64,000 nucleotides of DNA. It comes from Candidatus Wolfebacteria bacterium RIFOXYD12_FULL_48_21. Its GTDB lineage: Bacteria > Patescibacteriota > Minisyncoccia > UBA6257 > UBA9933. The stretch lies in assembly GCA_001793945.1 (NCBI GenBank), contig MGIW01000003.1:65630-129629 (forward strand), given 5' to 3'. Positions 48,454 through 64,000 of this stretch are shown one piece after another (within the stretch, counting starts at the first letter, position 1; each line of letters starts with the position of its first letter). The notes beneath the pieces are model-generated. The model saw nothing but the letters and a program-made list of their open reading frames with translations. It ran no database searches and was not told the origin of the DNA. Both the position numbers and the translations under genes were made by a program.

Positions 48454-49134
48454 TTATTCTTCCTGTTCGCCACTGGTGAGGCGATTCAGGATATCTTTCC
48501 AGTCTTTTCCCTTCTCGGCGTAGTCCACACCGGTAGCGTGGCAGGTGTAGCAATCGTATGTGCTGTCGTTAGCACGCCGACACTTGCCCGTGCCGCCACA
48601 TTCCCGGCAAGGCCCTTCGGTGCCCGTTATGCCAACCCTTTTTACATGATTGGTAAACAGCGCCTTGGCGCCTGCAACCGGGAACACTCCACGGTCCATG
48701 CGGTCGAGCATGGCGCTCGCCGGATGACTGTGGTGATCCATGTCGGTAACAACCGCCACGAACTTCGCGCCTTCCAGTGCCGCATCAATGGCGAGCGCCC
48801 AGCCGATCGGCATTTCTGTGCCGACATACTGCAGGCCATTGCCCCCTTGGGTTTTCCTACCCGCGGGCATCAGCAAATCAGAGAGCACCGCATCCCAGTA
48901 GGGAAGCTTACACTCTTCCATGGCCTTCGCCCACACTTCGCCGCACCAGCCATAGCCTGCCGCTTCTGCCTCTGCCTTGAGTCGCAGAAGTTTTTCCCTG
49001 TCACACGGCTTTTCCCGCACGAGCTCTACCGCTTCGTCGTGGCTTCCCACCACGGTAAGCTCATGCTCGTGGCCGAGCGTCTGGTAGGCTGCCTTCCGGT
49101 GAGACGGGTTGTCATCGATAACGAGGATCTTCAT
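48454..49134 (-). CDS. Atypical receiver (REC)-like domain protein with C-terminal Cys-rich zinc-ribbon, no recognisable output domain
   Basis: MKILVIDDNPSHRKAAYQTLG...DAVLSDLLMP is receiver-like with insertions. C-terminus CRECGGTGKCRRANDSTYDCYTCHATG. GC ~58%. RBS aggagaaagaccATG lies 20 nt after the upstream ORF. Confidence 0.5.
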   Translation of the reverse strand: MKILVIDDNPSHRKAAYQTLGHEHELTVVGSHDEAVELVREKPCDREKLLRLKAEAEAAGYGWCGEVWAKAMEECKLPYWDAVLSDLLMPAGRKTQGGNGLQYVGTEMPIGWALAIDAALEGAKFVAVVTDMDHHSHPASAMLDRMDRGVFPVAGAKALFTNHVKRVGITGTEGPCRECGGTGKCRRANDSTYDCYTCHATGVDYAEKGKDWKDILNRLTSGEQEE

Positions 49135-49154
49135 GGTCTTTCTCCTGAGTTGGT

Positions 49155-49514
49155 TTACGCCAGCCCTTTGCCGGCGATGTGATTCGTAAATCTCTTCATC
49201 TCTTCTCCATCTTTCCCGATGAAGGAGATAGTGAATACTGAAAGCAGCTCCTTGAAACGCTCGTTCTTGCCAAGCGCTTCCGCGCTCTTTTCAATATTAT
49301 TCCCCTCACCTACTCCGATGGCGAACAATATTACCCTTTTCCCGGCCAGCAGGAGGTCGAGCGCTTCGTTGACATTGGTGCAAAGCACCTCGTCTGCAGA
49401 AGCCATATCCTCAACAACCCTGCCCAGCGCGCAGGCAATCAGCACGCCGAGAGTATTTTTTATCGGACCGTCCTCGGTGTTTATATACACCTTTTTCCTT
49501 TTTAAGCCGTCCAT
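49155..49514 (-). CDS. Hypothetical 119-aa protein (first gene of cassette operon with the REC/Zn-ribbon protein)
   Basis: RBS ggaggcgaagg. Preceded by the conserved leader module. The ORF-track 167-aa version reads through the leader. Confidence 0.4.
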   Translation of the reverse strand: MDGLKRKKVYINTEDGPIKNTLGVLIACALGRVVEDMASADEVLCTNVNEALDLLLAGKRVILFAIGVGEGNNIEKSAEALGKNERFKELLSVFTISFIGKDGEEMKRFTNHIAGKGLA

Positions 49515-49580
49515 TCTTCCTTCGCCTCCATTAAATATCCCGTAATACGGGCTGCGCACGATCGCGCTAATTTTTAAAAG

Positions 49581-49671
49581 TACCACTCCCTTCGAATTCC
49601 CGTTCTGTGAACCGAAACTCGATAAGGAGGGCAAGTGAATTCTCCAACTAGATTTCACTTGCCCGACCCTC
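49581..49671 (-). promoter_or_regulatory. Conserved cassette leader module, copy 3 (upstream of the 119-aa ORF / REC operon)
   Basis: CCCTTCGAATTCCCGTTCTGTGAACCGAAACTCGATAAGGAGGGCAAGTGAAttctccaactagaTTTCACTTGCCC. Confidence 0.55.
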
Positions 49672-49685
49672 CGTCGAGGGCGCCA

Positions 49686-49761
49686 CGCTTCATCAATTTT
49701 TTACTGTGGTTGTGGTTTTCTTCCACGATTACCGTCGGTTATGCGCGCGCAAGCCCGACGG
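49686..49761 (-). repeat. Cassette 3' trailer module, copy 3 (belongs to an ORF-less decayed cassette)
   Basis: CGCTTCATCAATTTTTTACTGTGGTTGTGGTTTTCTTCCACGATTACCGTCGGTTATGCGCGCGCAAGCCCGACGG. The cassette upstream has only an RBS followed by a 4-codon ORF (MPPM). Confidence 0.6.
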
Positions 49762-49861
49762 TGAAGTTTTTGAGAAAAACTTCACCAAAAACTCTTTTAC
49801 ATGGGTGGCATAGCCTCTCCTTGTTTGTTTGCCCTTTCGGACCGATTCCTTCAAAACCATG

Positions 49862-49940
49862 TAAAACCTCTACGGGTCCCCGTTCTTACGAACCGGAATC
49901 CGATAGAAGGGGCAAGTGATGATATCACCGCTTGCCCACC
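49862..49940 (-). repeat. Degenerate cassette leader/hairpin module, copy 4
   Basis: GTCCCCGTTCTTACGAACCGGAATCCGATAGAAGGGGCAAGTGATGATATCACCGCTTGCCC. Confidence 0.5.
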
Positions 49941-49980
49941 TTTCCACTGGCACATCATGCACCGCCGGAAAGGGTAGTAA

Positions 49981-50051
49981 CGCCGTCAATTTTTTAGATA
50001 GTGTGGTTTTATTCCACCTTTAGCGTCGGTTGCGTTACCATTGCCCGACGG
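49981..50051 (-). repeat. Cassette 3' trailer module, copy 4
   Basis: CGCCGTCAATTTTTTAGATAGTGTGGTTTTATTCCACCTTTAGCGTCGGTTGCGTTACCATTGCCCGACGG. Confidence 0.6.
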
Positions 50052-50290: not shown

Positions 50291-50481
50291 CGCTTTATGT
50301 ATAACCTCATTTATATAGCATAAATACTATATAAATTGACTAACTTTAGTAAAAATAAAAAATGACCCTTTCGGCGTCATAATGTTCCCATGCGTAATTT
50401 TATCGATCTTTCACTCAAAATAGCGCCCGTATGCACAGCTCATTACCAAGCGCTATCCTCTACCCGCCCCCTCTTTTATGG

Positions 50482-51201
50482 CTACTTCCCTAAAAATACC
50501 TTTCCTAAAATATCGCTTTTTGCTATTACATCCGCATCGCCACCAACAGCAATCTTTCCTTTGTCCAAAACATACGCCGTTTGGGCGATATCCAAGATCG
50601 ATCGTATGTTATGCTCCACCACTATGATTGCCGTGTGTTTAACTTCGTTGATCTCGCGGATCTTTTCAAATACTTCTTTTACGATCTTTGGCGCAAGCCC
50701 GAGTGATGGCTCATCGAGCAATAACACCTTGGGGTCGATCATCAATCCACGCGCGAGCGCCACCATCTGCTGCTCCCCTCCGGAAAGCATCCCCGATTTC
50801 ATATTCCGCTTGCGTTTCAATACAGGGAACAGTTCCATTACATCGTGCTTGCGCGCATGTCGCTCGTCTTTATCCTTTACAATTATCCCGCCAATGTCGA
50901 GATTTTCCTCGACTGTCAGGCTTTGAAACACGCGACGGCCTTGCGGCACAAATGCGACTCCCTTGCGCGCCATCTTGTGTGGAACCGGAATAACCTTCTC
51001 GCCTCTCCATATAATATGGCCCGCGTGCAATGGCGTGATGCCAAAGATGGCCTTCAGTACCGTCGATTTCCCCGCGCCGTTTGGGCCCATGAGCGCAACA
51101 AGCTCACCCTCATGAATGTCGATATCAACGCCATCAAGGGCATGCACGCCGCCATAATGAACGGACACATTCTTTAGTTGCAGTAGGGGTTCGTTTTGCA
51201 T
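50482..51201 (-). CDS. livF: Branched-chain amino acid ABC transporter ATP-binding protein (LivF-like)
   Basis: Walker A GPNGAGKST, signature LSGGEQQMVALARGL, Walker B LLLDEPS. Start assumed at MQNEPLL. Confidence 0.8.
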   Translation of the reverse strand: MQNEPLLQLKNVSVHYGGVHALDGVDIDIHEGELVALMGPNGAGKSTVLKAIFGITPLHAGHIIWRGEKVIPVPHKMARKGVAFVPQGRRVFQSLTVEENLDIGGIIVKDKDERHARKHDVMELFPVLKRKRNMKSGMLSGGEQQMVALARGLMIDPKVLLLDEPSLGLAPKIVKEVFEKIREINEVKHTAIIVVEHNIRSILDIAQTAYVLDKGKIAVGGDADVIAKSDILGKVFLGK

Positions 51202-51208
51202 ATCTATT

Positions 51209-51305
51209 GACAAAAACTGGTAATCATCTATACTAATAGTACATTATGCTCCAGCAATGGAGTTCCGAGAAACCCCTTCGAGAGAAGGGGTTTCGTTTTA
51301 TACGA
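51209..51305 (+). ncRNA. Candidate small RNA: promoter TTGACA-16/17-TATACT followed ~40 nt later by an intrinsic terminator
   Basis: TTGACAaaaactggtaatcatcTATACT ... GAAACCCCTTCGAGAGAAGGGGTTTCGTTTTAT. Divergent from livF. Could alternatively encode a ~32-aa peptide (MLQQWSSEKPLREKGFRFIRAPLASLLYPHNR). Confidence 0.3.
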
Positions 51306-51749
51306 GCTCCTTTAGCTTCACTTTTATACCCCCATAATCGGTAGTATTCAATTTACCTATTTTCCTAATAAATCGCTTATTACTGATCGCTCGCAGTTGT
51401 GACAGAATTATTACATTCTGTTCTCCTTGGGTATTAGTAAATGGGAAATAATATTTACCTTCCTTCATTTTCGTTTATTTCTACTCCGATATTTTGCCCT
51501 AAACTTGCCCACCAAATTTGCCTTTCCCGAGGAAAACTTCTTATATCTGAAGCATGTATATGTATTTTTGACTTAGTCTAATGCGCAAATACTTCGACAA
51601 GTTCTTTTGTAATTTTTATACTCATAAAATAAATCGACTCTTCGCCTTTATTCTTTCTCAATCTTACCAAATTCCATTCTCTTTATAAACTGATTGGATT
51701 TTGTTAACCTTTATAAAATGGCTTCGGCTCTCCCTTGCGTGAGTAGGGG

Positions 51750-51790
51750 TAACAAAAAACAGCCCTCTACGAAGGGCCGTTTTTTATGGT
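51750..51790 (-). terminator. Intrinsic terminator after substrate-binding protein gene
   Basis: Minus strand AAAAAACGGCCCTTCGTAGAGGGCTGTTTTTTGTT. Confidence 0.7.
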
Positions 51791-51805
51791 TTGAACATAG
51801 TGCGG

Positions 51806-52954
51806 TTATTTTCCTACAAATACCGGCATCATATTTTCCAGTCTAAACAATCGCACAAGGATCCCGCTCACTCGTCCATCTTCTTTCATTGTGAGGTTTC
51901 CCGTCACGCCTTTGAAGTTTTCGACATTCTTCATTGCGGTTATCTTCTGATTCAACTGTCCCTTTTTCGTGCTTGCGGTCACTTTCGGCAGCACCTCGGT
52001 GATCAATACCTTGGCCGAGTCGTATGCCTGGTCGCTGGCGACGAACACAAAGGGGGTCCTGCCATACTTCGCCTTAAAGTCATTGTGAAACTTTACAGCA
52101 ACCTGGTTCCCTTCGATTGGAGCATAGAACGAGAAGTGGATTCCATCAATCGCCTTGCCCGCAGCCGCCTGAATGGACGGGGTCGTGGCAACGGTAGGAA
52201 TCGTGAGATAATTCTTTCCTATGTTCAAGTTCTTTGCCTCCTTGATCGCGATTCCGATTTCGTCATAGCCAAGGAATACGATCGCATCCTTATCCTTGAA
52301 CTTCAGTAGCGATGTTTTGAAGTCGGTCGTTCCCGGCTTATAGCTCTCTACCTGCACTGAAGCCGCATTTCCTATTCTAACTACGAATTCATCGGAAACA
52401 GACTGCATGAAGTTATCGACGGTGGAATGCAAGATTCCGATATTCTTATAACCCTGTTCCTTTGCATAATCAGCGATTACATCGGCTAAGTCATTTGTTT
52501 CCTTGGCGATGCAAAATATATTTTCCGGAAGATTGGCGAGTGCCTGATCACAATCCAACGAGTCTACTATCAATACATTGTCTCGCTGCGCCCGTTCGGC
52601 CAAGGCCATGACGCCGCCATAGGTGGACATGATGATCGTATCGACACCATCGATGGTTACCATCTTTTCATATGCACTGATCGCTTTTGCCGTATCGTAT
52701 TGATCATCCTCCACTACGAGCTTTATTTGTCGGCCGTTTATGCCTCCGCTTGCGTTTGCTTCATCAACCGCGAGTTGTATCGATTTGGAAGCTTCTTCTC
52801 CCAATATCGCCACATCTCCCGTTAGTGGGCCGATATAGCCGAGCATATACGCCCCTTCCACCTGTGCGCCGTTACCCCATTTAAACAGATATCCGGCAGC
52901 TATTACCGCTATGACCACTGCAATTCCGATAATGCTATTTTTTTTGTCATTCAT
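51806..52954 (-). CDS. ABC transporter substrate-binding protein (LivJ/branched-chain amino acid binding family, type I periplasmic binding fold)
   Basis: Signal-anchor N-terminus and family-wide similarity to Leu/Ile/Val-binding proteins. Terminator at 51750-51790. Confidence 0.75.
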   Translation of the reverse strand: MNDKKNSIIGIAVVIAVIAAGYLFKWGNGAQVEGAYMLGYIGPLTGDVAILGEEASKSIQLAVDEANASGGINGRQIKLVVEDDQYDTAKAISAYEKMVTIDGVDTIIMSTYGGVMALAERAQRDNVLIVDSLDCDQALANLPENIFCIAKETNDLADVIADYAKEQGYKNIGILHSTVDNFMQSVSDEFVVRIGNAASVQVESYKPGTTDFKTSLLKFKDKDAIVFLGYDEIGIAIKEAKNLNIGKNYLTIPTVATTPSIQAAAGKAIDGIHFSFYAPIEGNQVAVKFHNDFKAKYGRTPFVFVASDQAYDSAKVLITEVLPKVTASTKKGQLNQKITAMKNVENFKGVTGNLTMKEDGRVSGILVRLFRLENMMPVFVGK

Positions 52955-53170
52955 GTAATTTTTATTATTTTATTATTTTTCTCACGCGCGTTCACTTGTT
53001 AATCATGATAACAACATTATGCGGTTATATTGTCAAACAGTCAACAAATGTATTTCTAATTTTTCTTATCCAACCCCCCACTCTCCTTTAATATGCCTTT
53101 AATATTGACTTTTTTTGCTGTTTTGCTACTATTAAAATAGTGACGGAATTATCGTTATTTATATATACTT

Positions 53171-53905
53171 ATGGTCATACAACAACTCCAAGACGCCGGT
53201 CTAACAAAAAAAGAGGCTCAAATCTACCTTGCCCTATTAGAGTTGGGGGAGGCAAATATCGCTCAGATAACAAAGAAATCGGGCATTAAACGATCGACTG
53301 TCTATGAAATGCTCGATATTCTGAAGAAAATGGGCCTTGCAAGCCAGGGTCGCCTTAAAAAACGGACCGTTTTTTATGCAGAAAGCCCAAAAAAGATCCC
53401 CGAGGCGCTGGATGCAAAAAAACGCGCCATAGAAGAGGCAATGCCCGAATTGCTGTCCATGATGAATCTATTGGATAAAAAGCCCAAGATAAAATATTTT
53501 GACGGCATTGCGGGTTTACGGGAAGTATTTGAAGACACCCTAAGATATCCGGACCAGGAAATACTCACCCTATTCCCCTACCCATACATAAACCTGGGTG
53601 AAGATTATTTTCAGGGACATTATTTGCCGGAACGAGTAAAGCGGAAGATATGGTCGCGCGCCATTATCCCCGATACTCCGGAGAATAGGGTCTTTGCCAA
53701 GTATCTCCAAGAAAATGCCATCACAACGACGCGATTCTCCTCCGATGCAGCCTTTAAACTATTCGACATCGAGATCAAGATCTATGGCGGAAATAAGCTC
53801 GGGATCATTTCCTATAAAGAAGACCTCGGGTTGATCATAGAGAGCACAAAGGTATCCGAAGGCCTTAGGGCCATATTTGAAACAATGTGGAACTTACTAA
53901 AATAA
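53171..53905 (+). CDS. TrmB-family transcriptional regulator, paralog 2
   Basis: AGLTKKEAQIYLALLELGEANIAQITKKSGIKRSTVYEMLDIL is colinear with paralog 1. Terminator at 53905-53945. Confidence 0.7.
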   Translation: MVIQQLQDAGLTKKEAQIYLALLELGEANIAQITKKSGIKRSTVYEMLDILKKMGLASQGRLKKRTVFYAESPKKIPEALDAKKRAIEEAMPELLSMMNLLDKKPKIKYFDGIAGLREVFEDTLRYPDQEILTLFPYPYINLGEDYFQGHYLPERVKRKIWSRAIIPDTPENRVFAKYLQENAITTTRFSSDAAFKLFDIEIKIYGGNKLGIISYKEDLGLIIESTKVSEGLRAIFETMWNLLK

Positions 53906-53945
53906 GCCAGCCAAAAAATCCGCCGAAGCGGATTTTTTTAGTTAT
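53905..53945. terminator. Bidirectional terminator between trmB paralog 2 and SBP gene
   Basis: AAAAAATCCGCCGAAGCGGATTTTTTTAG. Confidence 0.7.
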
Positions 53946-53951
53946 TACTTA

Positions 53952-55094
53952 TTACATACCGATGGTCTGTCCATTCTTTATGACCTTCACTGTAAACCCA
54001 ATGTCTGAATTACCACTCTGATCAAGAGAATATGTTCCCATAAATCCGTTGTAATTCTTCACATTCGTCGTCAGCCAATCACGCACCTTTGCGCTGTCGT
54101 CTCCAACTGTTGCGATTGCCGTTGCGAGCAGCTGCATATCGTCATAGGTAGCCGCACTGTGGAATGGCACCACTGGATCTTTGCCGTACTTTGTCTTATA
54201 TGCGGCGAAGAAATCCCTAAGCCCTGCATTGTTTGCGTTGTATGACGGATCTGCGAAATGGATCCCCTCGAACGATCCGAGTATCTTTTTTACATCGGCG
54301 TTCAAAACCAGTAGGAAATCGGAGAATACCGGGGCCTTTACACCGATAGTATTCATCTGTTTGATTAAGTTTCCTCCACTGATACCCGTCTGTGACGCCA
54401 CCAGTATCGCATCCAGATTCTCCGCCTTAATCTTGCTCGCGATTGTCCTGAAGTCTGTTGTGTTTGGCTGGAATTCTTCTGCAATGACCACGGTCATGCC
54501 CAGCTCCTGCGCTTTCTGCTCAAAACTCTTTTTAATGTCTATTGTGTATTCGGTCGTTTCAGCAATCACACCCACCTTCTTATATCCTTTCTTTGCCATT
54601 GCTTCTGCAATGTTGCGCCCTGCCAAAAGATCTGAGTTGGCTGTTCTAAAGATATACTCACCCGCTTCATCTACATTTCTTCCGCCGGTGACCGGCGTCA
54701 TCAGAACTACCTTGTTCTGATTGGCGATCGGCGCTGCCGCAATCGTGCCATTACTACACATACCTCCAATGATATACTTTACCTTGTCAGTATTTACGAG
54801 CTTCGATACGGCCGACAATCCAGTCTTGCTGTCGCATTTTGCGTCCTCGACGACCAATTGAATCTGTCGTCCATTGATGCCTCCCTTTGCGTTAATCTCA
54901 TCTGCTGCTAATTGAGCAGTGTTTGCAATATTTTCACCAAGTGCCGCGAGATCACCGCTCATAAATGTTGAAACTCCGATCTTGATCGGTCCAGTTTCTA
55001 CCGATATATCCTTTTTATTTGCCAATATATATCCTCCCAATATCACCGCTATCACGGCAACAATACCGAAAACCAATTTTGTATTTTTTGTCAT
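53952..55094 (-). CDS. ABC transporter substrate-binding protein (LivJ-like), paralog
   Basis: Same fold and family as 51806..52954. Signal anchor MTKNTKLVFGIVAVIAVILGGYILA. Confidence 0.75.
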   Translation of the reverse strand: MTKNTKLVFGIVAVIAVILGGYILANKKDISVETGPIKIGVSTFMSGDLAALGENIANTAQLAADEINAKGGINGRQIQLVVEDAKCDSKTGLSAVSKLVNTDKVKYIIGGMCSNGTIAAAPIANQNKVVLMTPVTGGRNVDEAGEYIFRTANSDLLAGRNIAEAMAKKGYKKVGVIAETTEYTIDIKKSFEQKAQELGMTVVIAEEFQPNTTDFRTIASKIKAENLDAILVASQTGISGGNLIKQMNTIGVKAPVFSDFLLVLNADVKKILGSFEGIHFADPSYNANNAGLRDFFAAYKTKYGKDPVVPFHSAATYDDMQLLATAIATVGDDSAKVRDWLTTNVKNYNGFMGTYSLDQSGNSDIGFTVKVIKNGQTIGM

Positions 55095-55276
55095 GTTTAT
55101 AATTATTTCCTCTTAATTAATAATTTTAGCCTGGCGTAAGGTAACGCAATTAAGATAAATCCTTACTTTTATCTTATTACTCGACTATTATGCCATTATA
55201 TGACATAATAACAATAGATTTCTTGTATTTTTTTAAATTATGTCCTACATTGATACTATAATTATAAAATTTAAAA

Positions 55277-56299
55277 ATGAATGTAACAGAACTTGACAAA
55301 AAAATACTTTTTCAACTTGATATGGATGGGCGCGCCAGCTTCTCTGAAATAGCCCGTTCTATTGGCTCCACCCCTCAGGTCGTCAAGTATCATTACGAAC
55401 AATTGATGGGGCGTGGCATTATCAAGCACTTTTGGGCATACATCGACTACGACAAGGCCGATTATTCATTTTTCTGGGGCTACTGGTTCAAATTTGCCGG
55501 CCTTACCAAGGTGATCGAGGATGAGATGTATACGCGCCTGAACGCAGACCCCAATGTTCCAATCATCATGCGCGCAGACGGATATGCGGATGTCCAACTT
55601 GCATTCATCAGTAAAGACATCTTCAACCACAACGAAATGTTGCAGAATTTTTTTACCCGTTACGGACAATATGTGGTTTCTACCGATATTTTTGTTGGCC
55701 TCGGATTTATAAAATTCCCCAGAATGTATTTAGTAGGGGAGGAAAACAAACCGCAAACAAGTGCTCTGTCTGGTGGGACCACTAAAAAGATCCGCCTCAC
55801 CGAAATCGATCGGAAAATGATGTCGCTCCTTCTTATAGACGGCAGAATGGAATTCACAAAAATTGCTAATATTTTAGGCGTGTCCGTCGGGTTGGTACAT
55901 AAACGCTATGCGAAACTCAGGGATACGGGCGTCATCACCAAAATATCCTTCACGATCGACTACCCCAAAATAGGCCTTCTCCTCTACCGCGTCTGCTTCA
56001 AGATCACGCAGTTCGATCACAAGCGCATTGATGACCTCTATGAGTTTTGCTCCCTCCATCCTAATATCATCGATTACGTAAAGGGCATGGGTAGTTGGGA
56101 GCTGCTTCTGGATATCGAGATAGAAGATCGTGCGTCCCTTCGCAACCTCATCCGCGAGCTAAAAACTAAATTCAAGGATATCTTTCAGCGGGTGGAGATA
56201 AACGAGATATACCAGATGGATAAATTCACGCAGATGGCTATGGAATATCCGGAGATGGCCAAATATGCCCGCCCTTCTTCTTTGATCATGTACGATTAA
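55277..56299 (+). CDS. Tandem (duplicated) Lrp/AsnC-family transcriptional regulator
   Basis: Two successive HTH_AsnC-like segments (LDKKILFQLDMDGRASFSEIARSIG... and IDRKMMSLLLIDGRMEFTKIANILG...), each followed by a RAM-like domain. 340 aa. Confidence 0.55.
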   Translation: MNVTELDKKILFQLDMDGRASFSEIARSIGSTPQVVKYHYEQLMGRGIIKHFWAYIDYDKADYSFFWGYWFKFAGLTKVIEDEMYTRLNADPNVPIIMRADGYADVQLAFISKDIFNHNEMLQNFFTRYGQYVVSTDIFVGLGFIKFPRMYLVGEENKPQTSALSGGTTKKIRLTEIDRKMMSLLLIDGRMEFTKIANILGVSVGLVHKRYAKLRDTGVITKISFTIDYPKIGLLLYRVCFKITQFDHKRIDDLYEFCSLHPNIIDYVKGMGSWELLLDIEIEDRASLRNLIRELKTKFKDIFQRVEINEIYQMDKFTQMAMEYPEMAKYARPSSLIMYD

Positions 56300-56319
56300 T
56301 CTCTGCTTTCTATCGTATA

Positions 56320-56355
56320 AAAAATGCCCCGCCGTATTGGCGGGGCGCATTACCT
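56320..56355. terminator. Bidirectional terminator between AsnC-like gene and hypothetical gene
   Basis: AAAAAATGCCCCGCCGTATTGGCGGGGCGCATT. Confidence 0.65.
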
Positions 56356-56467
56356 CCTTTTTTTGCTTATTCCTTATTCCATTTTCGTGCTTCGCGCTCT
56401 ACTCCCCCCAAATACGCCTCGATGACTTCCCGTCTTACAAACACTTCTTCTGGCTTGTCTTCGCCCC

Positions 56468-57418
56468 TTACTTCTCTTCCAAGTGCTCCTTTAACAGCAT
56501 TTCCATCGGACAGAGCCCGTTAAGACTTTCATGGGGAAAATAATTCCACGCATCGTTCAGTAGTCGAAAACCCTCTTCGTCGAAAAATCCTGTCTTGTCG
56601 AGTAATGCGTTGAAATTATGGTGCGCATCATCCTCTTCATAAATCATATGCTCTATGTCTTCGAATTTCATCGACACGCTCCTTTCTTTTAGTAGCCGCG
56701 AAATAGCTTCCCGCAACAGCTTCTGTTGTGGAAGCACATTTGTCTCATGGAAGTAGCTTTTATATGCTTCCCTGCCGGCAGCATGCGATTTCTTACTACC
56801 CCTTCCTTTTACCGATAGCATACCTTTTTCTTCCCGTATAAATTCCTCAAATATATTCTCATGCAGTTCGCCTCGGAGCAAGTGGTCATTTAGTAATACC
56901 TGTAAACTCTTATACACGCTCGGGGGTAGGCTGGCAATATATTTGTATCTCGAATACTCTTTGCGATAATTCCAGTCGAGGAGCTGTGACACCTTGTATG
57001 CAAATTCACAAAACCGCTTCCTATCGCGTTCTATTTCTTCATCCGATATATTCTTCATCCATGAACTTCTCGTTATGTGCAGAGTCATATCGAGCCAATC
57101 AACTGCGTTGAGAAGCGCCTGCCGTATCTTTCCCGATGGATTCTGAATTTGCCTAATTACGAACTCCTCACATTCCTTGAAATAATCACTCCCAAGATAT
57201 ATAAACGCCCACTTTACTGTATTGATAAAATATGTCTGATGATCAATATCTTTTATTTGATCAAATGTTTTCATCTCGCCGATAAAAGCCCATAGCTCTT
57301 TCTTGAGTGCGTTTCTATCAAGCGTGCGGTCATTGGCTACTTTTGCAACCTGCTTTTGCGCTTCTTTTACCGCTGCCTTGTCGCCGGTTTTTATTATCTT
57401 TATTAATTGGGAAATCAT
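56468..57418 (-). CDS. Hypothetical 316-aa protein adjacent to AbiE module
   Basis: AT-rich, helical, no recognisable motifs. Terminator at 56320-56355. Confidence 0.35.
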   Translation of the reverse strand: MISQLIKIIKTGDKAAVKEAQKQVAKVANDRTLDRNALKKELWAFIGEMKTFDQIKDIDHQTYFINTVKWAFIYLGSDYFKECEEFVIRQIQNPSGKIRQALLNAVDWLDMTLHITRSSWMKNISDEEIERDRKRFCEFAYKVSQLLDWNYRKEYSRYKYIASLPPSVYKSLQVLLNDHLLRGELHENIFEEFIREEKGMLSVKGRGSKKSHAAGREAYKSYFHETNVLPQQKLLREAISRLLKERSVSMKFEDIEHMIYEEDDAHHNFNALLDKTGFFDEEGFRLLNDAWNYFPHESLNGLCPMEMLLKEHLEEK

Positions 57419-57442
57419 GATTCAATTCTTGCAATTGAGTAT

Positions 57443-58153
57443 TTATTTTAGCGAAGAGATATAATTTTTTACCATGAATATGGTATCGGTTTTTAGGCTT
57501 TTTTTAACCCATCTTTTTTCTTTCTCGGAGAGTAGCTCGCCAAGACCGCGTAAAACTTGGCTATCTTTTATCTGTTCTATGAACACCACGCATTCACCGA
57601 GATACTCCTTTACTGTTTTTTCTGTTCTACTTTGTATCACCATTGCATCAATATCCCAATGCTGTTTCGCGAAAAAGTGAATGTCGTATACATCCCGCAT
57701 GGCCGTTTCCGTCCGAGAAGTAAGCGCTGCCAGCTTGCTCGCAAATAAATACTCTTTTTTTGCAACGAGCATCGAAATTCCTATATACTCCTTGATTTCG
57801 TAGTACTTCCTAATATTCTCGACGAGTATTCTTGTGTTTATCTCCACTTTTATATTATGATCGGCATCCCCATATGAAAGCACTACAAGCACGGTATATC
57901 TTTTAATCCATTGATCTTTTATTATCCCATATTTGCTTAAGATGCCAATAATCTTTTTATAAACAACCTCTTGATTCTCTTGGCTTGTTTCCAACAGGTC
58001 AAAATCGAGATCCACCGAAAACCTTGGGAGGTTATAGAAGAAGTAAGCGCATGTTCCTCCTTTAAACCCCAGTAACGGGGCAATGGAGGTGTCTTCGTAG
58101 ATATCTTTTAATATCTGCCCCATGATCAGTTGATGTTTTTCGTTATTGAGCAT
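57443..58153 (-). CDS. AbiEii/AbiGii-family nucleotidyltransferase toxin (type IV TA / abortive infection)
   Basis: LGFKGGTCAYFFYNLPRFSVDLDFDLLE matches the AbiEii signature (KGGTAL...RFSEDIDF). Confidence 0.75.
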   Translation of the reverse strand: MLNNEKHQLIMGQILKDIYEDTSIAPLLGFKGGTCAYFFYNLPRFSVDLDFDLLETSQENQEVVYKKIIGILSKYGIIKDQWIKRYTVLVVLSYGDADHNIKVEINTRILVENIRKYYEIKEYIGISMLVAKKEYLFASKLAALTSRTETAMRDVYDIHFFAKQHWDIDAMVIQSRTEKTVKEYLGECVVFIEQIKDSQVLRGLGELLSEKEKRWVKKSLKTDTIFMVKNYISSLK

Positions 58154-58715
58154 GAGTGTCGTAATATTTTTTGAGGCGATTTTCGAGCTGTTTGTTTTTA
58201 TATATCCCTACCATCTCAAAACATTTATCCCAATCCAATGGCCTTAAATTATCAAAATAGTAGCCCGGAAAGAGGTATATCATGTCTAAAAATGCGCGCT
58301 CAGGCGTTGCGATACTATAATTATCTTTATTTCTAATACCTGTCGCGTTATAGAGTACGATATCTTTTAATTTTCTAAATGTAACCGTTCGCCCGTCAAT
58401 TGTTACCGTCTTTGCCATCCTACTCGCCACGAATACTGTTTTGTAATACTGAAATATCATACCCGCCTCAAGCAGGGCCGTTTCGAAGCTTATATATGCC
58501 GGCGTATATATGCTCGTTGCGAGCTCCCTTGGCTCATACTGCACATCTTTTGCGAATATGCCTCTCGTAAGACTTAGTAGCGACCCTTGCTTTACATAAT
58601 ATGCTATCTTTGCTTTTAAGTTATTTTTATTCGTTTCTCCCCACGCTAAAGCCATGTCATTCGTCGTTAAAATGGTTTTTTTTAATTTATATACACTTGT
58701 GAGCGAACTATCCAT
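58143..58715 (-). CDS. AbiEi-family antitoxin / transcriptional regulator
   Basis: N-terminal wHTH with RGIF motif (LLSLTRGIFAKD). Overlaps the AbiEii start (ATGA-type coupling). Confidence 0.65.
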   Translation of the reverse strand: MDSSLTSVYKLKKTILTTNDMALAWGETNKNNLKAKIAYYVKQGSLLSLTRGIFAKDVQYEPRELATSIYTPAYISFETALLEAGMIFQYYKTVFVASRMAKTVTIDGRTVTFRKLKDIVLYNATGIRNKDNYSIATPERAFLDMIYLFPGYYFDNLRPLDWDKCFEMVGIYKNKQLENRLKKYYDTHAQ

Positions 58716-58832
58716 ATAATATACCTCTGAAGTAAGCCTTTATCTTACTTCCAGTATAAATTATTGCTATTTACTTGTCAAATGCATTCCTCATTCCTTA
58801 TTGCTTACTCCCTTTTGCCTATTACCCACTCC

Positions 58833-59591
58833 CTATTCCCCCAAATATGCCTCGATAACTTCCCGTTTCGCGAGGACATGGTCCGGCTTCCCTTCGGCGA
58901 GTAATTTTCCGCTATCCATGACGATCAGGTGGTCGCACAGTTCGCGAATCAAATTCATATTATGTTCGATCAGAATGACCGTTTTGCCTGCTTCCTTCAA
59001 CTCTTTAATTACCGACACAATGACCTTGATCATTTCCGGAAACAATCCCGCAAATGGCTCGTCGAACAAAAAGATACTCGCATCCTGCCCAATATGGTCG
59101 GAATGCGTCATCGCCAGCACCCGAGCTATCTCTAATAGCTTTCTTTGCCCGTAGGAGAGGTTGTGAGCCAGTTGGCTTCGCTTTTCCCATAACCCTACGC
59201 GCGTCAATACCGTTTCCACCTTTTTCATATGCCCCGCGTTATGCCGCTCGAACAGCGAACCCCACACGCTGCGCTCAGTCAACACAACCAGAATGTTATC
59301 CAGCACGGTCATTTGCTCGAAAAGTCGCACCTCCTGAAATGTTCGCGTGATTCCATGGTAGGCGGTGTCAGATGCCCGCAACCCTTTCATCTCCCGTTCT
59401 CCGCCGATGACCATCACTCCTGCGGTCGGCGGAAGCATGCCACTCAGCACATTGACCAAGGTCGTTTTGCCGGAACCGTTCGGCCCCACAACTCCCGTTA
59501 CCTTGCCTTGCTCGAATGCAACCGAAAGACCGTCGATGGCAGCGACACCGCTAAAATGCTTATGTAGTTCTTTTGTTCGTATTGCGTCCAT
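58833..59591 (-). CDS. livG: Branched-chain amino acid ABC transporter ATP-binding protein (LivG-like)
   Basis: Walker A GPNGSGKTT, signature LSYGQRKLLEIARVL, Walker B FLFDEPFAG. Confidence 0.8.
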   Translation of the reverse strand: MDAIRTKELHKHFSGVAAIDGLSVAFEQGKVTGVVGPNGSGKTTLVNVLSGMLPPTAGVMVIGGEREMKGLRASDTAYHGITRTFQEVRLFEQMTVLDNILVVLTERSVWGSLFERHNAGHMKKVETVLTRVGLWEKRSQLAHNLSYGQRKLLEIARVLAMTHSDHIGQDASIFLFDEPFAGLFPEMIKVIVSVIKELKEAGKTVILIEHNMNLIRELCDHLIVMDSGKLLAEGKPDHVLAKREVIEAYLGE

Positions 59592-59714
59592 ATAAATTAG
59601 TAGTTAGTAGATGGCAGTAAGTAATAAGCAAATAGGGATTCTGTTTTTTATTACTATATCCACTATCCTTTTCCCTTTCCCTCTTCCTTTTTTCTTATTT
59701 TTTTTCCTTATTTC

Positions 59715-60584
59715 TTATTTCACCTCGTACTCCCCAATAAACCCTTTGGGTCTATAGAGCATCAGTAGCACCAGTATCGCTCCATAAATGATCTGACGCA
59801 TCTGCGCCGCTATATCCGTGGGCAATCCTACGAATCGCAGTATTTCGGGCAAAAGAATAAGAAACAATGCGCCTGCCAGCGTTCCGCGGAGGCTCCCCAA
59901 CCCGCCCATGATGACAATTGCCAGAATAAATATGGATTCGTTAAGCGAAAATGATGACGGGTCGATATAGGTGATATATGAAGCGAACAACGACCCGGCA
60001 ATCGACGCCATGGCGGCTCCTATTACGAATATCGCCAGTTTGAAATAGGCAACTTTGTACCCGAACACCTCCAGCGCCTTTTCATCCTCGCGGATCGCTT
60101 TAAGCACCCGCCCAAATGACGAGTTTGCAATGAAGTGCGCAAGCGCATACACAGCGCCGAACAATACAACGGCTAACGCAAGAAATGTTTCATTCGCCGA
60201 GAATGTGAACCCGAACAAACTCGGTCGGTCGATCCCGGGAATACCCAACGGACCCTTGGTCACACTTTCCCAATTGAGAAAAATACTGAATGCGATCACA
60301 TTAAATCCAAACGACGCAAGCGCATAGTAATCATCCTTGAATTTACTCAGCACCATACCCGCCAACAAGCTCACGATCGCCGTGATTACTATCCCCAGTA
60401 TGACCGAGGCAAAAAAGCCGAGCCCGTAGTGGGCCAGCGCGACCGCGGTCGCGTATGCGCCGATGCCATAAAAGGCGGCATGGGTCACCGACAGCAATCC
60501 CGCATATCCGACGATCAAATTCAACCCGACGCCAAGAATAGCGTAAATAAAAAATAGTATTGCTATGTGAATAAGATATGGCAT
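59715..60584 (-). CDS. livM: Branched-chain amino acid ABC transporter permease (LivM-like)
   Basis: 8-9 TM helices. Family-typical GYAGLLS and C-terminal permease motifs. Confidence 0.75.
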   Translation of the reverse strand: MPYLIHIAILFFIYAILGVGLNLIVGYAGLLSVTHAAFYGIGAYATAVALAHYGLGFFASVILGIVITAIVSLLAGMVLSKFKDDYYALASFGFNVIAFSIFLNWESVTKGPLGIPGIDRPSLFGFTFSANETFLALAVVLFGAVYALAHFIANSSFGRVLKAIREDEKALEVFGYKVAYFKLAIFVIGAAMASIAGSLFASYITYIDPSSFSLNESIFILAIVIMGGLGSLRGTLAGALFLILLPEILRFVGLPTDIAAQMRQIIYGAILVLLMLYRPKGFIGEYEVK

Positions 60585-60586
60585 GG

Positions 60587-61453
60587 CTATTTTTTAAATA
60601 TACCTTGAGGGCGAAATAAGAGAAAGATTATTAAAATAATAAATGCGATCGCGTCCTTCCATTCGCCCGAAAACTGCCATACACCGAAGTTCTCCGCGAA
60701 CCCAAGCAGGAATGCTCCGGCAAATGCCCCGTGCATCGTGCCGACGCCGCCGATGATCGCCGCGATTACGCCCTTGAGCAGCAAGTGCATACCCATGGTC
60801 GGCTCCAACCCCGTGTCGAATCCAACCAAAATACCCGATAGCCCCGCGATAGCCGACCCTATGAAAAATACCCATCCGATGATCTTGTCCGTATGAATGC
60901 CAACCATCTTTGAGACTTCTTCATCGTCACTCACCGCGTTGACCGCCCGGCCAAACATCGTCTTTTTTAACATAAGCGTCAGCAATGCGAGGACTACAAT
61001 TCCACAAATCAGAATGATAGCCTGTGTCTGCGTAATGATACCCCCCGCTATAGTGTAAACACGGCTCTCTGTCGAATTATTGGCAAGTGTCTGAAATTGG
61101 CTCGTGAACAAGATTGCGATGATCGCCTGAATGACCGTCAAGAGACCAAGTGAGGCGACCAGAAACACCATTTGCGACGCCTTGCGCAGGCGCAGCTGCC
61201 GAAATATAGCCTTATCCAAAATATATCCGACAAACCCCGCAAACACTATCGCCAATACGGCACTTGCGTATACATTCCATCCGAGTTCCTTGTACAGGAA
61301 GAACATGGCATATCCGCCGACGACTGTCAGCGCACCGTGGGCCAAGTTAAAAAACTTTGTCGTGCGATAGATCAGGTTAAAGCCCAACGCGATCAATGCG
61401 TAAATCGCTCCTGCGATGATACTGTTTGCGATTATCTGCGGAATAATACCCAT
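60587..61453 (-). CDS. livH: Branched-chain amino acid ABC transporter permease (LivH-like)
   Basis: 8 TM helices. Immediately upstream of livM with a 2-nt gap. Confidence 0.75.
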   Translation of the reverse strand: MGIIPQIIANSIIAGAIYALIALGFNLIYRTTKFFNLAHGALTVVGGYAMFFLYKELGWNVYASAVLAIVFAGFVGYILDKAIFRQLRLRKASQMVFLVASLGLLTVIQAIIAILFTSQFQTLANNSTESRVYTIAGGIITQTQAIILICGIVVLALLTLMLKKTMFGRAVNAVSDDEEVSKMVGIHTDKIIGWVFFIGSAIAGLSGILVGFDTGLEPTMGMHLLLKGVIAAIIGGVGTMHGAFAGAFLLGFAENFGVWQFSGEWKDAIAFIILIIFLLFRPQGIFKK

Positions 61454-61480
61454 TAGGGTTAATTATACTTTATTTCTTTC

Positions 61481-61512
61481 TTAAACTAAAAAGCGGCTCT
61501 GGGCCGCTTTTT
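61481..61512 (-). terminator. Intrinsic terminator after SBP gene (upstream of livH)
   Basis: Minus strand AAAAAGCGGCCCAGAGCCGCTTTTTAG. Confidence 0.65.
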
Positions 61513-61522
61513 AGCAAGTATT

Positions 61523-62662
61523 TTATTTCAATTCCTCTATCTTGCCATCTTTGATGATCTTCACGGTCATCGGCTCGATGCCAACCACATCTCCGTTCGC
61601 ATCAAACTTGTATGATCCGAGCACACCGTCATAATTGCCCATAGCATAAAGATAATCCTTCATACATTCCGAATCTTCACCACACTGCTTAAGAGCCCCT
61701 GCGATGATAAACACGGTGTCATATCGAGCGCCTACATCGAATGTGTTGCCTGCGATATTCCCGTATATCGGAACATACTTGTCCAATAAGGCCTTTCCCT
61801 TTTCTCCGGACAATCCCACGACATCAAAGAATACAACATCATTGGCAGCAGTTCCCGCCGCCTTTATTCCGTCTTCTCCTCCGAATGTATAGGTGCTAAA
61901 GATTGGCGCCGTTATCCCTGCCTCTCTTATTTGCTTGATGGCCGTGCCTCCGGTTGCGCCTGCCTGCGGGTTCACAAAAACCGCTTGCGGGTTGGCCGCC
62001 TTGATCTTTGCGATCATTCCCCTAAAATCCCGCTCGCCCTGCTTGAACATTTCATCGGTAGTCACCGTTCCGCCGAGATTATTCATCTCATCTACAAATA
62101 CCTTCCTTACGCCAACCCCATACTCGGTGTTTTCCGAGAGTATCGCAACATTCTTATACCCTTTCTTATTCACGATATAATTTGCGTATCCCTTTGCAAC
62201 ATCAAGATCGGAAGGAGAGTTTCTGAATATATAATCTCCAGCCGCGGTGATATCGGGACTACTTGAGAATGCGGACATAACGATAACCTTGTTCTGCTCT
62301 GCAATCGGGGCGATGGCAAGCGTTTCTCCGCTGCATGTTCCACCCAAAATCACTTTTACCTTATCAACACTGATAAGCTTTTGCGCTGCAGTTGTAGCAT
62401 CTTTCCCTGCGCACTTTCCGTCTTCATATACCACGGCCAATGTCTTCCCGTTGATCCCTCCTGCTTCATTTATTTCCTTGAGCGCAAGTGTTATTGCGTT
62501 CTTCTCCTCTGCGCCATAGACCGCAGCATCGCCGGTCAACGGGCCTACAAATCCTATTGTTATCGTTCCGCCGGCAGCCGGCTTACCCATAAGCGCATAT
62601 CCTCCCCAGATGATTACTACCACGACAATGACTCCTACGATTATTTTTGTTATTTTATCCAT
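61523..62662 (-). CDS. ABC transporter substrate-binding protein (LivJ-like), third paralog
   Basis: Signal anchor MDKITKIIVGVIVVVVIIWGGYA and type I periplasmic binding fold. Terminator at 61481-61512. Confidence 0.75.
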   Translation of the reverse strand: MDKITKIIVGVIVVVVIIWGGYALMGKPAAGGTITIGFVGPLTGDAAVYGAEEKNAITLALKEINEAGGINGKTLAVVYEDGKCAGKDATTAAQKLISVDKVKVILGGTCSGETLAIAPIAEQNKVIVMSAFSSSPDITAAGDYIFRNSPSDLDVAKGYANYIVNKKGYKNVAILSENTEYGVGVRKVFVDEMNNLGGTVTTDEMFKQGERDFRGMIAKIKAANPQAVFVNPQAGATGGTAIKQIREAGITAPIFSTYTFGGEDGIKAAGTAANDVVFFDVVGLSGEKGKALLDKYVPIYGNIAGNTFDVGARYDTVFIIAGALKQCGEDSECMKDYLYAMGNYDGVLGSYKFDANGDVVGIEPMTVKIIKDGKIEELK

Positions 62663-62918
62663 TTTTATTAATTATTTATTATTGCGACGGTTAATTTTAT
62701 TATTATACGAGACACCCATTAACTACCCTGATTATTGTTGATACATGGTACTGTATTAGTGATTTTCTCTATAGTAGCACCTTGTTGTTTATTTGTCAAT
62801 AGGTATCGTCATATTATGCCAGTTTTATAAATTTTCCTTTTAATTACTGCACATATTGCCTTATTTTTGTGGAAAGATATTGACACAATTATACATATTG
62901 CTTACACTGAGAATACAA

Positions 62919-63680
62919 ATGATCAATTATAAGCATTTAACCGAATTGGGGTTTAGCCACAAAGAAGCGACCGTCTATCTGTCGCTTTTAGAGCTGGGCC
63001 CGTCGAGCGCTACAGAGATTGCCCGGAGGGCAAAAATAAACCGCACAACCAGCTATGATATCCTCGAATCCCTCTCTAGCGAAGATCTTGTCCGTCTGAC
63101 GGGCAAAGCAAAGATCAAAAAGTATGCGGCAGAGAACCCAGCCAAGGTCATTTCATTTCTGGAAGGCCGCGTCGAACAGGCAAAGGGAAACCTGCATGCC
63201 GCAACCGCGCTCCTTCCCCAGCTGCTTTCTATTTATAACACCAAGGAAAAACCGCGGGTTAAGTTTTACGAAGGCATCGACGCCCTTAAAGAAGCGTTCG
63301 AGGATACCCTCACCGCAAAGGGTGAGATCGTGGCATACGCCGTCGGGGGCGATATGTTCAACGCCGTTTCGGAAAAATACTTCCGCGACTACTTTAAAAA
63401 GCGGGCTGAGAAAAAAATCCATATCAGGGTTATCGTTCCGGCAGATAAAGAAACAAGGAGTATCGTCGTGAACGACAAGGAGGAGCTTCGGACATCGATA
63501 CTTGTCCCGAAGGGCATGTTCGATTTTTCCATCGAAACAAATATCTATAACAACAAAGTGATGATCGCCTCGTGGCGCGAAAAGTTTGCGGTGATCATTG
63601 AGAGCGCCGAGATAGCCAATGCCCAGCGAAACATATTTGAGCTGTCATGGGAAGGCGCCAAAAAGTTCAGCGTAAAGTAG
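62919..63680 (+). CDS. TrmB-family transcriptional regulator, paralog 3
   Basis: LGFSHKEATVYLSLLELGPSSATEIARRAKINRTTSYDILESL. Promoter TTGACA-17-TACACT at 62880-62908. Terminator at 63765-63805. Confidence 0.65.
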   Translation: MINYKHLTELGFSHKEATVYLSLLELGPSSATEIARRAKINRTTSYDILESLSSEDLVRLTGKAKIKKYAAENPAKVISFLEGRVEQAKGNLHAATALLPQLLSIYNTKEKPRVKFYEGIDALKEAFEDTLTAKGEIVAYAVGGDMFNAVSEKYFRDYFKKRAEKKIHIRVIVPADKETRSIVVNDKEELRTSILVPKGMFDFSIETNIYNNKVMIASWREKFAVIIESAEIANAQRNIFELSWEGAKKFSVK

Positions 63681-63764
63681 TCTTACACCGGCTAATATTT
63701 GAAATATATTCTTCCCAATGTCTTCAAATCGATGTTCGATATTATTTGGAATACTGTTTTGTAA

Positions 63765-63805
63765 AAAAGAACGGTCCGTCAGCTGACGGACCGTTCTTTT
63801 TTACT
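63765..63805. terminator. Bidirectional terminator after trmB paralog 3
   Basis: AAAAAAGAACGGTCCGTCAGCTGACGGACCGTTCTTTTTTAC. Confidence 0.75.
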
Positions 63806-63821
63806 CGCTATTGCAATGAAG

Positions 63822-64000
63822 TTATTCCGCTTTCACGAATACTCCGCCCTTCAATGTCTTTATCACAATATCCTTTTTCGCATCTCCATTCTGATCGAAC
63901 GACAACGATCCTCCCGCACCCGCAAAATCCTTTATGGTTCCCATATATTCTTTTGCCTCCTGCGTATCGTCGCCCACCACCGCGATCGTTTTCGCCAAGA
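63822..64000 (-). CDS. ABC transporter substrate-binding protein, C-terminal fragment (gene continues beyond window end)
   Basis: Minus-strand ORF open to the window edge, ending ...GGVFVKAE*. Composition and neighbourhood are like the other liv SBPs. Confidence 0.45.
   Translation of the reverse strand, partial: LAKTIAVVGDDTQEAKEYMGTIKDFAGAGGSLSFDQNGDAKKDIVIKTLKGGVFVKAE

Follow-up and report, generated by a model that had tools for sequence, protein, structure and literature searches.

Low G+C content (GC) and a transporter operon broken into distant pieces are easily read as marks of foreign DNA, and both are found at the right end of a 64,000-nucleotide sequence (the window) from Candidatus Wolfebacteria RIFOXYD12_FULL_48_21. 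The interval under study, positions 50,301-64,000, encodes a Liv-type ATP-binding cassette (ABC) transporter, substrate-binding proteins (SBPs), TrmB- and AsnC-type regulators and an AbiE toxin-antitoxin module. A sequence-only reading had taken it for a recently acquired mosaic island of ~14 kb. Is it foreign, or does it belong to the genome? The comparisons below indicate that the region is probably a resident nutrient-uptake locus of Wolfebacteria that carries one AbiE insert, and not a foreign island.

Genes of the liv locus

Exact-protein look-ups matched the window to identical contigs from several groundwater samples, among them the NCBI metagenome-assembled genome GCA_001793975.1. One sequence (L001) equals the window over 11,082 nt without difference and then extends rightward, so that 73.7 kb could be analyzed. 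The genes of the locus are as follows.

50,482-51,213, minus strand: livF-type ABC ATPase; called product of 239 aa from the ATG at 51,201; Pfam ABC_tran, 1.7e-33
51,806-52,954, minus strand: SBP1, Peripla_BP_6 (Pfam, 9.6e-46), with an N-terminal hydrophobic anchor; promoter-like site at 53,044-53,016, terminator-like hairpin at 51,775-51,763
53,171-53,905, plus strand: TrmB1, short TrmBL2-like regulator, divergent from SBP1; Pfam TrmB, 4.5e-15
53,952-55,094, minus strand: SBP2, Peripla_BP_6 (Pfam, 5.2e-64)
55,277-56,299, plus strand: AsnC2, tandem Lrp/AsnC regulator of two fused units, divergent from SBP2; HTH_AsnC/HTH_24 at residues 5-50 and 174-215
58,833-59,591, minus strand: livG-type ABC ATPase; ABC_tran (8.2e-25) plus BCA_ABC_TP_C
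59,715-60,584, minus strand: livM permease; BPD_transp_2 (precomputed Pfam), NCBIfam LivM 1.6e-52
60,587-61,453, minus strand: livH permease; BPD_transp_2 (precomputed Pfam), NCBIfam UrtB/LivH ~1e-39 to 1e-35
61,486-61,514: hairpin with a 13-bp stem between SBP3 and livH, a possible attenuator
61,523-62,662, minus strand: SBP3, operon-leading binding protein; promoter-like site at 62,799-62,771
62,919-63,680, plus strand: TrmB3, divergent from SBP3; Pfam TrmB, 6.2e-15; 253-aa product present in at least 24 contigs
63,822-64,000, minus strand: SBP4, C-terminal 59 codons; the full gene (376 aa in L001) reaches window-equivalent 64,952
Right of the window in L001, in order: SBP4 (376 aa), TrmB4 (244 aa), LactB (metallo-beta-lactamase fold) and ComEC
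Further right in L001, after ComEC: CobA/BtuR adenosyltransferase, PAS protein, LAGLIDADG protein and ribosomal protein L19

The earlier gene inventory was essentially right, except that three SBPs are complete and only the last 59 codons of the fourth lie in the window. Likewise, the window does hold three TrmB paralogs, of which only two fall inside the interval (53,171-53,905 and 62,919-63,680); the third (TrmB0, 47,332-48,060) lies outside. A TTG at 62,856, considered as the start of TrmB3, has no record, and the ATG at 62,919 is the called start.

Together these genes provide the complete set for an importer of the HAAT family: two BPD_transp_2 permeases, two ABC ATPases and a Peripla_BP_6 receptor. 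The closest solved structures to SBP3 are Leu/Ile/Val-binding proteins (4gnr, 1.4e-34; LivJ 1z15, 1.2e-25). The substrate is not assignable, because the NCBIfam matches of the four components scanned (SBP3, LivH, LivM and TrmB1) all stay under the equivalog cutoff. The four SBP paralogs are 26-38% identical to one another and the TrmB paralogs of this genome 23-46%; paralogs only 23-46% identical within one genome must be ancient. Read from their sequences, the receptors have an N-terminal hydrophobic anchor and no lipobox cysteine.

Promoter-like sites are well placed before the regulators and before each of SBP1, SBP2 and SBP3; a terminator-like hairpin lies behind both SBP1 and SBP2, and SBP1 appears to be monocistronic. 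The promoter scan of the interval as a whole gave 25 sites, with 28.9 in shuffled sequences and hence no excess, so only individual well-placed sites are cited here.

High-affinity branched-chain amino-acid import in E. coli is carried out by LivJ/LivK-LivHMGF, an ABC importer of the HAAT family, and the rhizobial Bra system is a multi-receptor member with extra BraC-type SBPs. The Wolfebacteria locus shares with the former the two BPD_transp_2 permeases, the two ATPases (one with a BCA_ABC_TP_C tail) and Peripla_BP_6 receptors, and with multi-receptor systems the use of several receptors for one translocator. It differs from both in having four receptors (up to ten in relatives), in their anchoring by an N-terminal hydrophobic stretch without a lipobox cysteine, and in its layout: the receptor genes are interleaved among the transporter genes instead of heading one operon, and most of them are accompanied by a divergent regulator of their own.

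Synteny and layout in related genomes

We scanned a genome collection with LivM, keeping one genome per species, and mapped the window proteins onto the resulting loci by tblastn. The scan gave 47 loci, 45 of them from relatives with 49-80% identity and two from outliers with 32-33%, both actinobacterial. Nearly all taxon-bearing titles of the 45 relatives name Patescibacteria groups, among them Wolfebacteria, Taylorbacteria, Campbellbacteria, Nomurabacteria and Magasanikbacteria; one reads Cytophagia. Best-hit taxonomy, checked for LivM, thus places the close relatives within Paceibacteria and the best in Wolfebacteria, the top match (80%) being the complete genome of Ca. Wolfebacteria GWB1_47_1 (locus L047). 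Across Paceibacteria, livM and livH are 57-80% identical.

L047 belongs to a different species and carries the segment syntenically beside the same core genes. Its order is L19 (95% identical)-CobA (64%)-ComEC (66%)-LactB (68%)-TrmB4 (87%)-SBP4 (83%), followed by a TrmB/SBP pair, livH (82%), livM (79%), livG (75%), two further TrmB/SBP pairs, TrmB1 (81%) and SBP1 (78%). No AbiE genes and no homolog of the 316-aa protein encoded beside them in the window were found in it by tblastn mapping. The sequence-only reading had named such synteny in relatives as the finding that would speak against a recently acquired ~14-kb island, and that proposal does not survive it.

The separation of livG from livF by 7.6 kb is as real as had been described, and the interleaved layout proved to be the norm in the 45 related loci, which deprives it of value as an island sign. 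There, livG and livF are split in 11/20 loci; the gap between livM and livG is at least 300 bp in 25/32, with a median of 2.8 kb and a maximum of 8.4 kb. The related loci carry 3.5 SBP genes on average and up to 10, and 47 of their 52 TrmB genes lie head-to-head with an SBP gene within 600 bp.

The edges of the interval were also searched for traces of integration. The called genes between 41 and 74 kb have no integrase or transposase Pfam domain, and the repeat searches raised no flanking repeats at the outer edges, the only flanking ones found being those that bracket the AbiE block. The sole tRNA of the window is a tRNA-Pro at 43,173-43,244, ~7 kb to the left (the right extension was not scanned for tRNAs). 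Neither an integrase nor a direct repeat thus turned up at the right boundary.

These results bear on the proposal of a foreign island, recently gained, that would comprise the whole ~14-16 kb from livF to TrmB4 between a cassette-like array and ComEC. Its GC is 6 points under that of the left 50 kb, the sequence is free of miniature inverted-repeat transposable elements (MITEs) from 48.2 to ~66.8 kb (P ~0.0035), and the tetranucleotide correlation is reduced over 46-60 kb, all of which would fit such an origin. However, a second Wolfebacteria species carries the genes in synteny, and their identities are no lower than those of the flanking core genes; the close LivM relatives are all from Paceibacteria, no integrase or edge tRNA was seen, and the transporter core is native in composition (below). 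We consider a foreign island very unlikely.

Base composition

GC does fall downstream of ~50.3 kb, from 50.2% (1-50,300) to 44.2% (50,301-64,000), with 1-kb bins of 38-50% within the interval. The previously described drop to 35-43% overstated its depth, and the actual drop is about half as large. The reference was the set of genes in 1-46 kb that encode 150 aa or more (GC 50.8 +/- 2.3%; GC at third codon positions, GC3, 0.587 +/- 0.048), and tetranucleotide correlations (r) are given with a null that is somewhat inflated, since its reference segments belong to the reference itself.

livF: GC 49.9%, GC3 0.56, z -0.5; 55-66% identical in relatives
livG: GC 51.5%, GC3 0.61
livF/G/M/H: GC 49-51.5%, GC3 z -0.5 to +0.5
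SBPs and regulators (mean): GC 46.2%, GC3 0.53, p = 0.003
AbiEi: GC 38.2%, GC3 z -3.8
AbiEii: GC 38.4%, GC3 z -3.1
316-aa protein: GC 41.5% (z -4.0), GC3 z -2.7
AbiE block: r 0.63, null 0.84 +/- 0.06
livG-livM-livH-SBP3: r 0.87, null 0.90 +/- 0.03
SBP1-TrmB1-SBP2-AsnC2: r 0.82, null 0.92 +/- 0.02

The genes livF/G/M/H are compositionally native. The interval lacks 831 G+C bases. Spacers account for 42% of this deficit, the AbiE block for 29%, the SBP and regulator genes for 28% and livF/G/M/H for 1%. Its spacers have 33.5% GC, and the four divergent promoter spacers 22-28%. At 35 of 41 relatives' loci, too, GC is lower in the SBP genes than in the liv genes (by 2.8 points, p = 2.5e-6), and at 19 of 20 it is lower in the TrmB genes (by 3.8 points). 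Because the same offset runs across the relatives' loci, the slightly reduced GC of SBP and regulator genes is a family trait and not a sign of recent arrival. The low GC of the interval would then come from AT-rich promoter spacers without GC-rich MITEs, from the AbiE block and from the family-wide SBP/regulator offset of 3-4 points, with almost no part played by the transporter core.

AT-richness is not peculiar to the interval either. A second low-GC patch (40-43%) consists of the CobA/BtuR, PAS and LAGLIDADG-like genes between ComEC and L19 (L001 15,830-18,638, window-equivalent 68.7-71.6 kb). The CobA gene is 64% identical in L047, and the PAS and LAGLIDADG genes have no match there.

Spacers without MITEs

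As had been noted from the sequence, MITEs are absent from the interval, and the last copy leftward is at 48,109-48,225. These GC-rich palindromic elements (termini TGTCATCCCGAG / CTCGGGATGACA) occupy 20 spacers of the 73.7-kb sequence, every one outside the cluster, and resume at window-equivalent ~66.8 kb, leaving a MITE-free stretch of 18.6 kb. Outside the cluster they are found in 16/28 tandem, 3/7 convergent and 1/7 divergent spacers. The gap could be caused by selection against insertion into regulatory spacers, by target preference or by recent recombinational replacement. None of the 47 related loci, that of the closest Wolfebacteria genome among them, carries the family, so that those loci are uninformative about avoidance of the cluster.

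Where the elements occur (window 1-48,225; L001 13,926-20,400), their density is ~1 per 2.7 kb, mostly in tandem-gene spacers, and the family appears to be a recent lineage-specific expansion. A different hairpin MITE lies at 47,227-47,288, in the spacer upstream of TrmB0.

An AbiE insertion behind livG

The only part of the interval that looks like an insertion is 56,405-58,837. Here the suggestion of an island within an island held up. The block made up of AbiEi, AbiEii and the 316-aa gene stands out in composition, lies between two copies of the livG 3' end and is missing from relatives.

56,326-56,346, bidirectional: GC-rich terminator hairpin, GCCCCGCC-loop-GGCGGGGC then a T-run; ~60 nt past the livG remnant
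56,405-56,463, minus strand: degenerate copy of the livG 3' end that forms the insert's distal boundary; encodes ...EDKPEEVFVRREVIEAYLGG (...RREVIEAYLGG), stop lost
56,468-57,418, minus strand: 316-aa all-alpha protein, ARM/HEAT-like, last gene of the insert; model with a predicted local distance difference test score (pLDDT) of 83.6
57,443-58,153, minus strand: AbiEii nucleotidyltransferase toxin; PADLOC 5.8e-70, Pfam 3.1e-18
58,143-58,715, minus strand: AbiEi antitoxin/repressor; PADLOC 7.7e-58; 11-nt overlap with AbiEii

The two livG ends form an imperfect 59-nt direct repeat (58,838-58,896 and 56,405-56,463; 76% identical, spacing 2,433 nt). The proximal copy is the true livG 3' end (...KREVIEAYLGE*), and all 31 LivG orthologs of more than 50% identity end in YLG plus E, K or D and a stop, mostly ...EAYLGE*. 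We infer that the hairpin at 56,326-56,346 once served livG as its terminator and now lies beyond the insert, and that the ancestral order was livG-terminator-AsnC2/SBP2, as around the AsnC2/SBP2 orthologs of another Wolfebacteria genome (GWE2_44_13, locus L044), the block having entered at the livG 3' end. A single event would thus have put the 2.4-kb block behind livG, duplicated the livG 3' end and parted livG from its old terminator.

The alternative that nothing was transferred, and that the AbiE genes are long-standing residents of low GC within a heterogeneous genome, would be in keeping with the low-GC genes (CobA, PAS, LAGLIDADG; 40-43%) among the core genes and with the fact that all contigs of this population, which come from several samples, contain the block. 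It does not account for the duplicated livG 3' end that brackets the block, nor for the split of livG from its terminator. Moreover, the block is absent from L047, L044 and other relatives (no match in the 47 related loci by tblastn), the closest outside homolog of the 316-aa protein is only 39% identical and lies in unrelated contexts, and a strain-level replacement by a DUF3800 gene shows ongoing import at the neighbouring slot. This explanation is highly improbable, and an insertion into a resident locus is preferred.

Like known AbiE modules (type IV toxin-antitoxin and abortive-infection systems), the module has overlapping AbiEi and AbiEii genes. It also has a predicted promoter of its own: upstream of AbiEi we noted a near-consensus site at 58,781-58,753 and one candidate 21-nt inverted repeat at 58,716-58,764, with 71% complementarity. 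Unlike known modules, it has a third co-oriented gene, for the 316-aa protein, 24 nt downstream, and it sits within a transporter operon of a Candidate Phyla Radiation (CPR) genome.

The 316-aa protein has no match in Pfam, NCBIfam or PADLOC and none in the PDB at E < 0.01. The ARM/HEAT fold matches of its model are generic (E > 0.01, template modelling score < 0.4), and no function was assigned from them. Its family comprises ~30 full-length homologs with 26-39% identity. Ten contexts were examined (the window and loci L061-L071), and in seven a gene for a nucleotidyl- or AMP-transferase toxin lies within ~1 kb, namely AbiEii in one (the window), MNT-HepT in one and Fic in five (two of these contexts are probably orthologous), often co-oriented with it and 4-24 nt away. 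The other three hold an integrase, a NERD gene or no obviously linked genes. The protein could be an adaptor, a decoy or a third component of these toxins.

Exchange in the slots between liv genes

The spacers between the liv genes hold variable cargo. In the strain variant ERZ5996431 (L013/L004), the 123-bp livM-livG spacer (59,592-59,714) is replaced by 912 bp with a DUF3800 gene (PADLOC DUF3800_VII, 2.4e-6) and a 58-aa open reading frame (ORF). The replacement spans precisely the livM stop to the livG start (L013 2,452-3,363 = L004 6,011-6,796). Synonymous single-nucleotide polymorphisms (SNPs) are clustered at its two junctions, with seven SNPs in the last 55 nt of livM and four in the first 80 nt of livG, against a background of 0.3%. 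Judged from these sequences, such clusters are the signature of import by homologous recombination. L047 fills this slot with an antitoxin gene of the HTH-SocA/Panacea type and a 145-aa ORF.

The livF-SBP1 slot of the window contains a predicted relic of the same kind.

51,298-51,560, minus strand: frameshifted MazF/PemK pseudogene; its 56-aa C-terminal ORF matches PemK_toxin at E = 2.6e-4 (21.6 bits), just short of the cutoff

A stretch resembling the MazF N-terminus ('...RERQIWWASLGQNIGVEINENEGR') lies in another frame, MazF-like being our own reading of it, and no antitoxin gene was recognised beside the remnant. Intact PemK toxins occur within the liv clusters of two relatives. Among the 87 other ORFs in the relatives' clusters, PemK, Panacea, AbiEii, AAA_14-DUF4143 and type I restriction-modification specificity proteins were each counted twice, PADLOC candidates PDC-S05/S01/S13 three, two and two times, and further TrmBs eight times. 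The two AbiEii ORFs counted by Pfam/PADLOC were not located by phmmer with the AbiE proteins of the window.

The slots resemble flexible genomic islets and defence hot spots in their variable cargo (toxin-antitoxin, DUF3800, PDC and restriction-modification genes) between conserved anchors, and in junction SNP clusters that point to import by homologous recombination. They differ in that the anchors are the genes of one transporter operon and that the slots also hold its own receptor and regulator modules.

Exchange may also reach those modules. SBP2 and AsnC2 are 81% and 80% identical in L044 (17,561-19,900, corresponding to window 53,952-56,299), with livH/M/G at only 61-65%, a discordance that suggests lateral module exchange. 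The mosaic character ascribed to the region thus stands for single SBP-regulator modules, which differ among relatives, and falls for the region as a whole.

Could the cluster be native and its modules SBP1-TrmB1, SBP2-AsnC2 and SBP3-TrmB3 nevertheless be mainly recent lateral imports between Paceibacteria? Besides the L044 identities, the non-orthologous modules in the equivalent L047 slots, the deviant tetranucleotide signature at 51.8-56.3 kb and the mechanism shown by the DUF3800 junctions argue for this. On the other hand, L047 has SBP1, TrmB1, SBP4 and TrmB4 at 78-87% identity, comparable to livH/M/G (75-82%), which would fit vertical descent; the paralogs of the window are, at 23-46% identity, ancient; and their GC offset is family-wide. 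Mainly recent import of the modules is unlikely, although it has a far better chance than a foreign island.

Several observations weigh against a resident locus with a single insert. SBP3 and TrmB3 have orthologs of at most 50% and 37% identity in the sampled species, and the tetranucleotide signature of SBP1-TrmB1-SBP2-AsnC2 suggests that part of this block may have come rather recently from a related genome. L047 ends at SBP1, which leaves the left flank of the closest relative outside the comparison. The lack of MITEs in all 11 cluster spacers (P ~0.0035 allowing for spacer type) is not explained by this account. The promoter scan found no predicted promoter for livF, and a comparison of both livG 3' copies with orthologs gave 72-80% identity and pointed to neither as the ancestral one.

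Regulators and the receptor genes beside them

The AlphaFold model of TrmB1 (pLDDT 90.3) matches TrmBL2 (5bpd) over its full length in Foldseek (6e-14) and also TrmB (3qph, 4.5e-10). The 244-aa model spans the 262-aa TrmBL2 fully, and the TrmB effector domain 2f5t is matched over its first part only (152 columns). In this structure comparison, TrmB1 is predicted to lack the C-terminal sugar-binding subdomain of P. furiosus TrmB. Its 415 homologs form a graded series of identities, and those with an organism name are from Patescibacteria.

Archaeal TrmB and TrmBL2 (Pyrococcus/Thermococcus) thus share with TrmB1 the TrmB-type winged helix, the long coiled-coil helix and the first alpha/beta subdomain, at 17-20% sequence identity. 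In contrast to the archaeal proteins, those described here are bacterial (Patescibacteria) proteins of 244 aa without the C-terminal sugar-binding subdomain. They are paired with amino-acid-type SBP genes and not with sugar ABC operons, and several paralogs occur per locus. The paralog outside the interval, TrmB0 (plus strand; Pfam TrmB, 8.3e-18), is an orphan with no SBP gene adjoining; TrmB1 is its closest paralog (46% identical).

In AsnC2, residues 165-292 match the whole of feast/famine regulators such as the Lrp-type protein PH1519, including its effector domain (1.6e-11), and no RAM domain was detected by sequence in the first half. A search for a shared operator palindrome in the four divergent SBP/regulator spacers gave no common motif; a clear palindrome is present only in the SBP2/AsnC2 spacer (55,186-55,210).

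Taken together, these data suggest the following model. One HAAT-family (Liv/Urt-type) translocator, LivH/M/G/F, would be served by four anciently diverged membrane-anchored SBPs, each encoded head-to-head with its own regulator, three of them short TrmBL2-like proteins and one a tandem Lrp/AsnC protein. Each regulator may control the adjacent SBP promoter in response to a different solute, and the cell would then shift import through the single translocator by changing which receptor is made. The conserved liv genes would act as homology anchors and the spacers as slots turned over by recombination with related genomes, which SBP-regulator modules, toxin-antitoxin and defence genes enter and leave. 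An event older than the AbiE insertion may have left the MazF pseudogene beside livF.

Tentatively, two wider proposals may be made together. One is a so far undescribed modular receptor design across Paceibacteria, in which one HAAT translocator has up to ten receptors, each receptor has a private TrmBL2-like regulator in several clades, and the operon, with its liv genes as recombination anchors, is a swap hot spot for receptor modules and for toxin-antitoxin and defence genes. The other is that the 316-aa family partners nucleotidyl- and AMP-transferase toxins. That both hold is possible, though we would not rate it as the likelier outcome. Literature searches with related term combinations found no paper on a Paceibacteria-wide receptor-regulator architecture, and searches combining TrmB with Patescibacteria or CPR, or CPR with branched-chain amino acid or SBP terms, returned nothing relevant.

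The reassessment corrects a false island call, in which AT-rich regulatory spacers and a layout typical of the lineage had appeared as a GC drop and a broken operon. Cells of the Paceibacteria type are ultra-small and presumably auxotrophic. That 15-20 kb go to a single importer whose many receptors are regulated separately suggests a way for a minimal cell to broaden and tune scavenging with one membrane complex. The livG duplication and the SNP clusters around DUF3800 offer a testable picture of how toxin-antitoxin and defence genes may enter streamlined genomes, via homologous recombination at operon genes. Fic, AbiEii or MNT toxins recur beside members of the 316-aa family, which may be a lead to a new toxin-associated protein.

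Left flank of the interval

The region to the left of the interval had been described as a cassette array. No IntI integrase was met beside it: the 465-aa gene adjoining it (44,748-46,145), tried as an integron integrase, has tRNA_anti-codon and tRNA-synt_2 domains and encodes an aminoacyl-tRNA synthetase. The array itself (46,224-50,051) contains four copies of a 74-nt repeat, at 46,224, 46,572, 49,687 and 49,978. Shared 5' leader-like repeats (46,446/46,943 and 46,483/49,571) flank small ORFs and two unknown genes, one of 226 aa with 58.6% GC and one of 167 aa. The array has the lowest tetranucleotide correlation of the window (0.70), and the population variant L010 is shifted by 155 bp within it.

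Farther left, a 136-nt repeat with 76% identity between its copies (32,360-32,495 and 33,568-33,703) links two neighbouring minus-strand ORFs of 290 and 383 aa. Both have an unusual GC distribution over codon positions (GC2 > GC1), and they are probably paralogous repetitive proteins.

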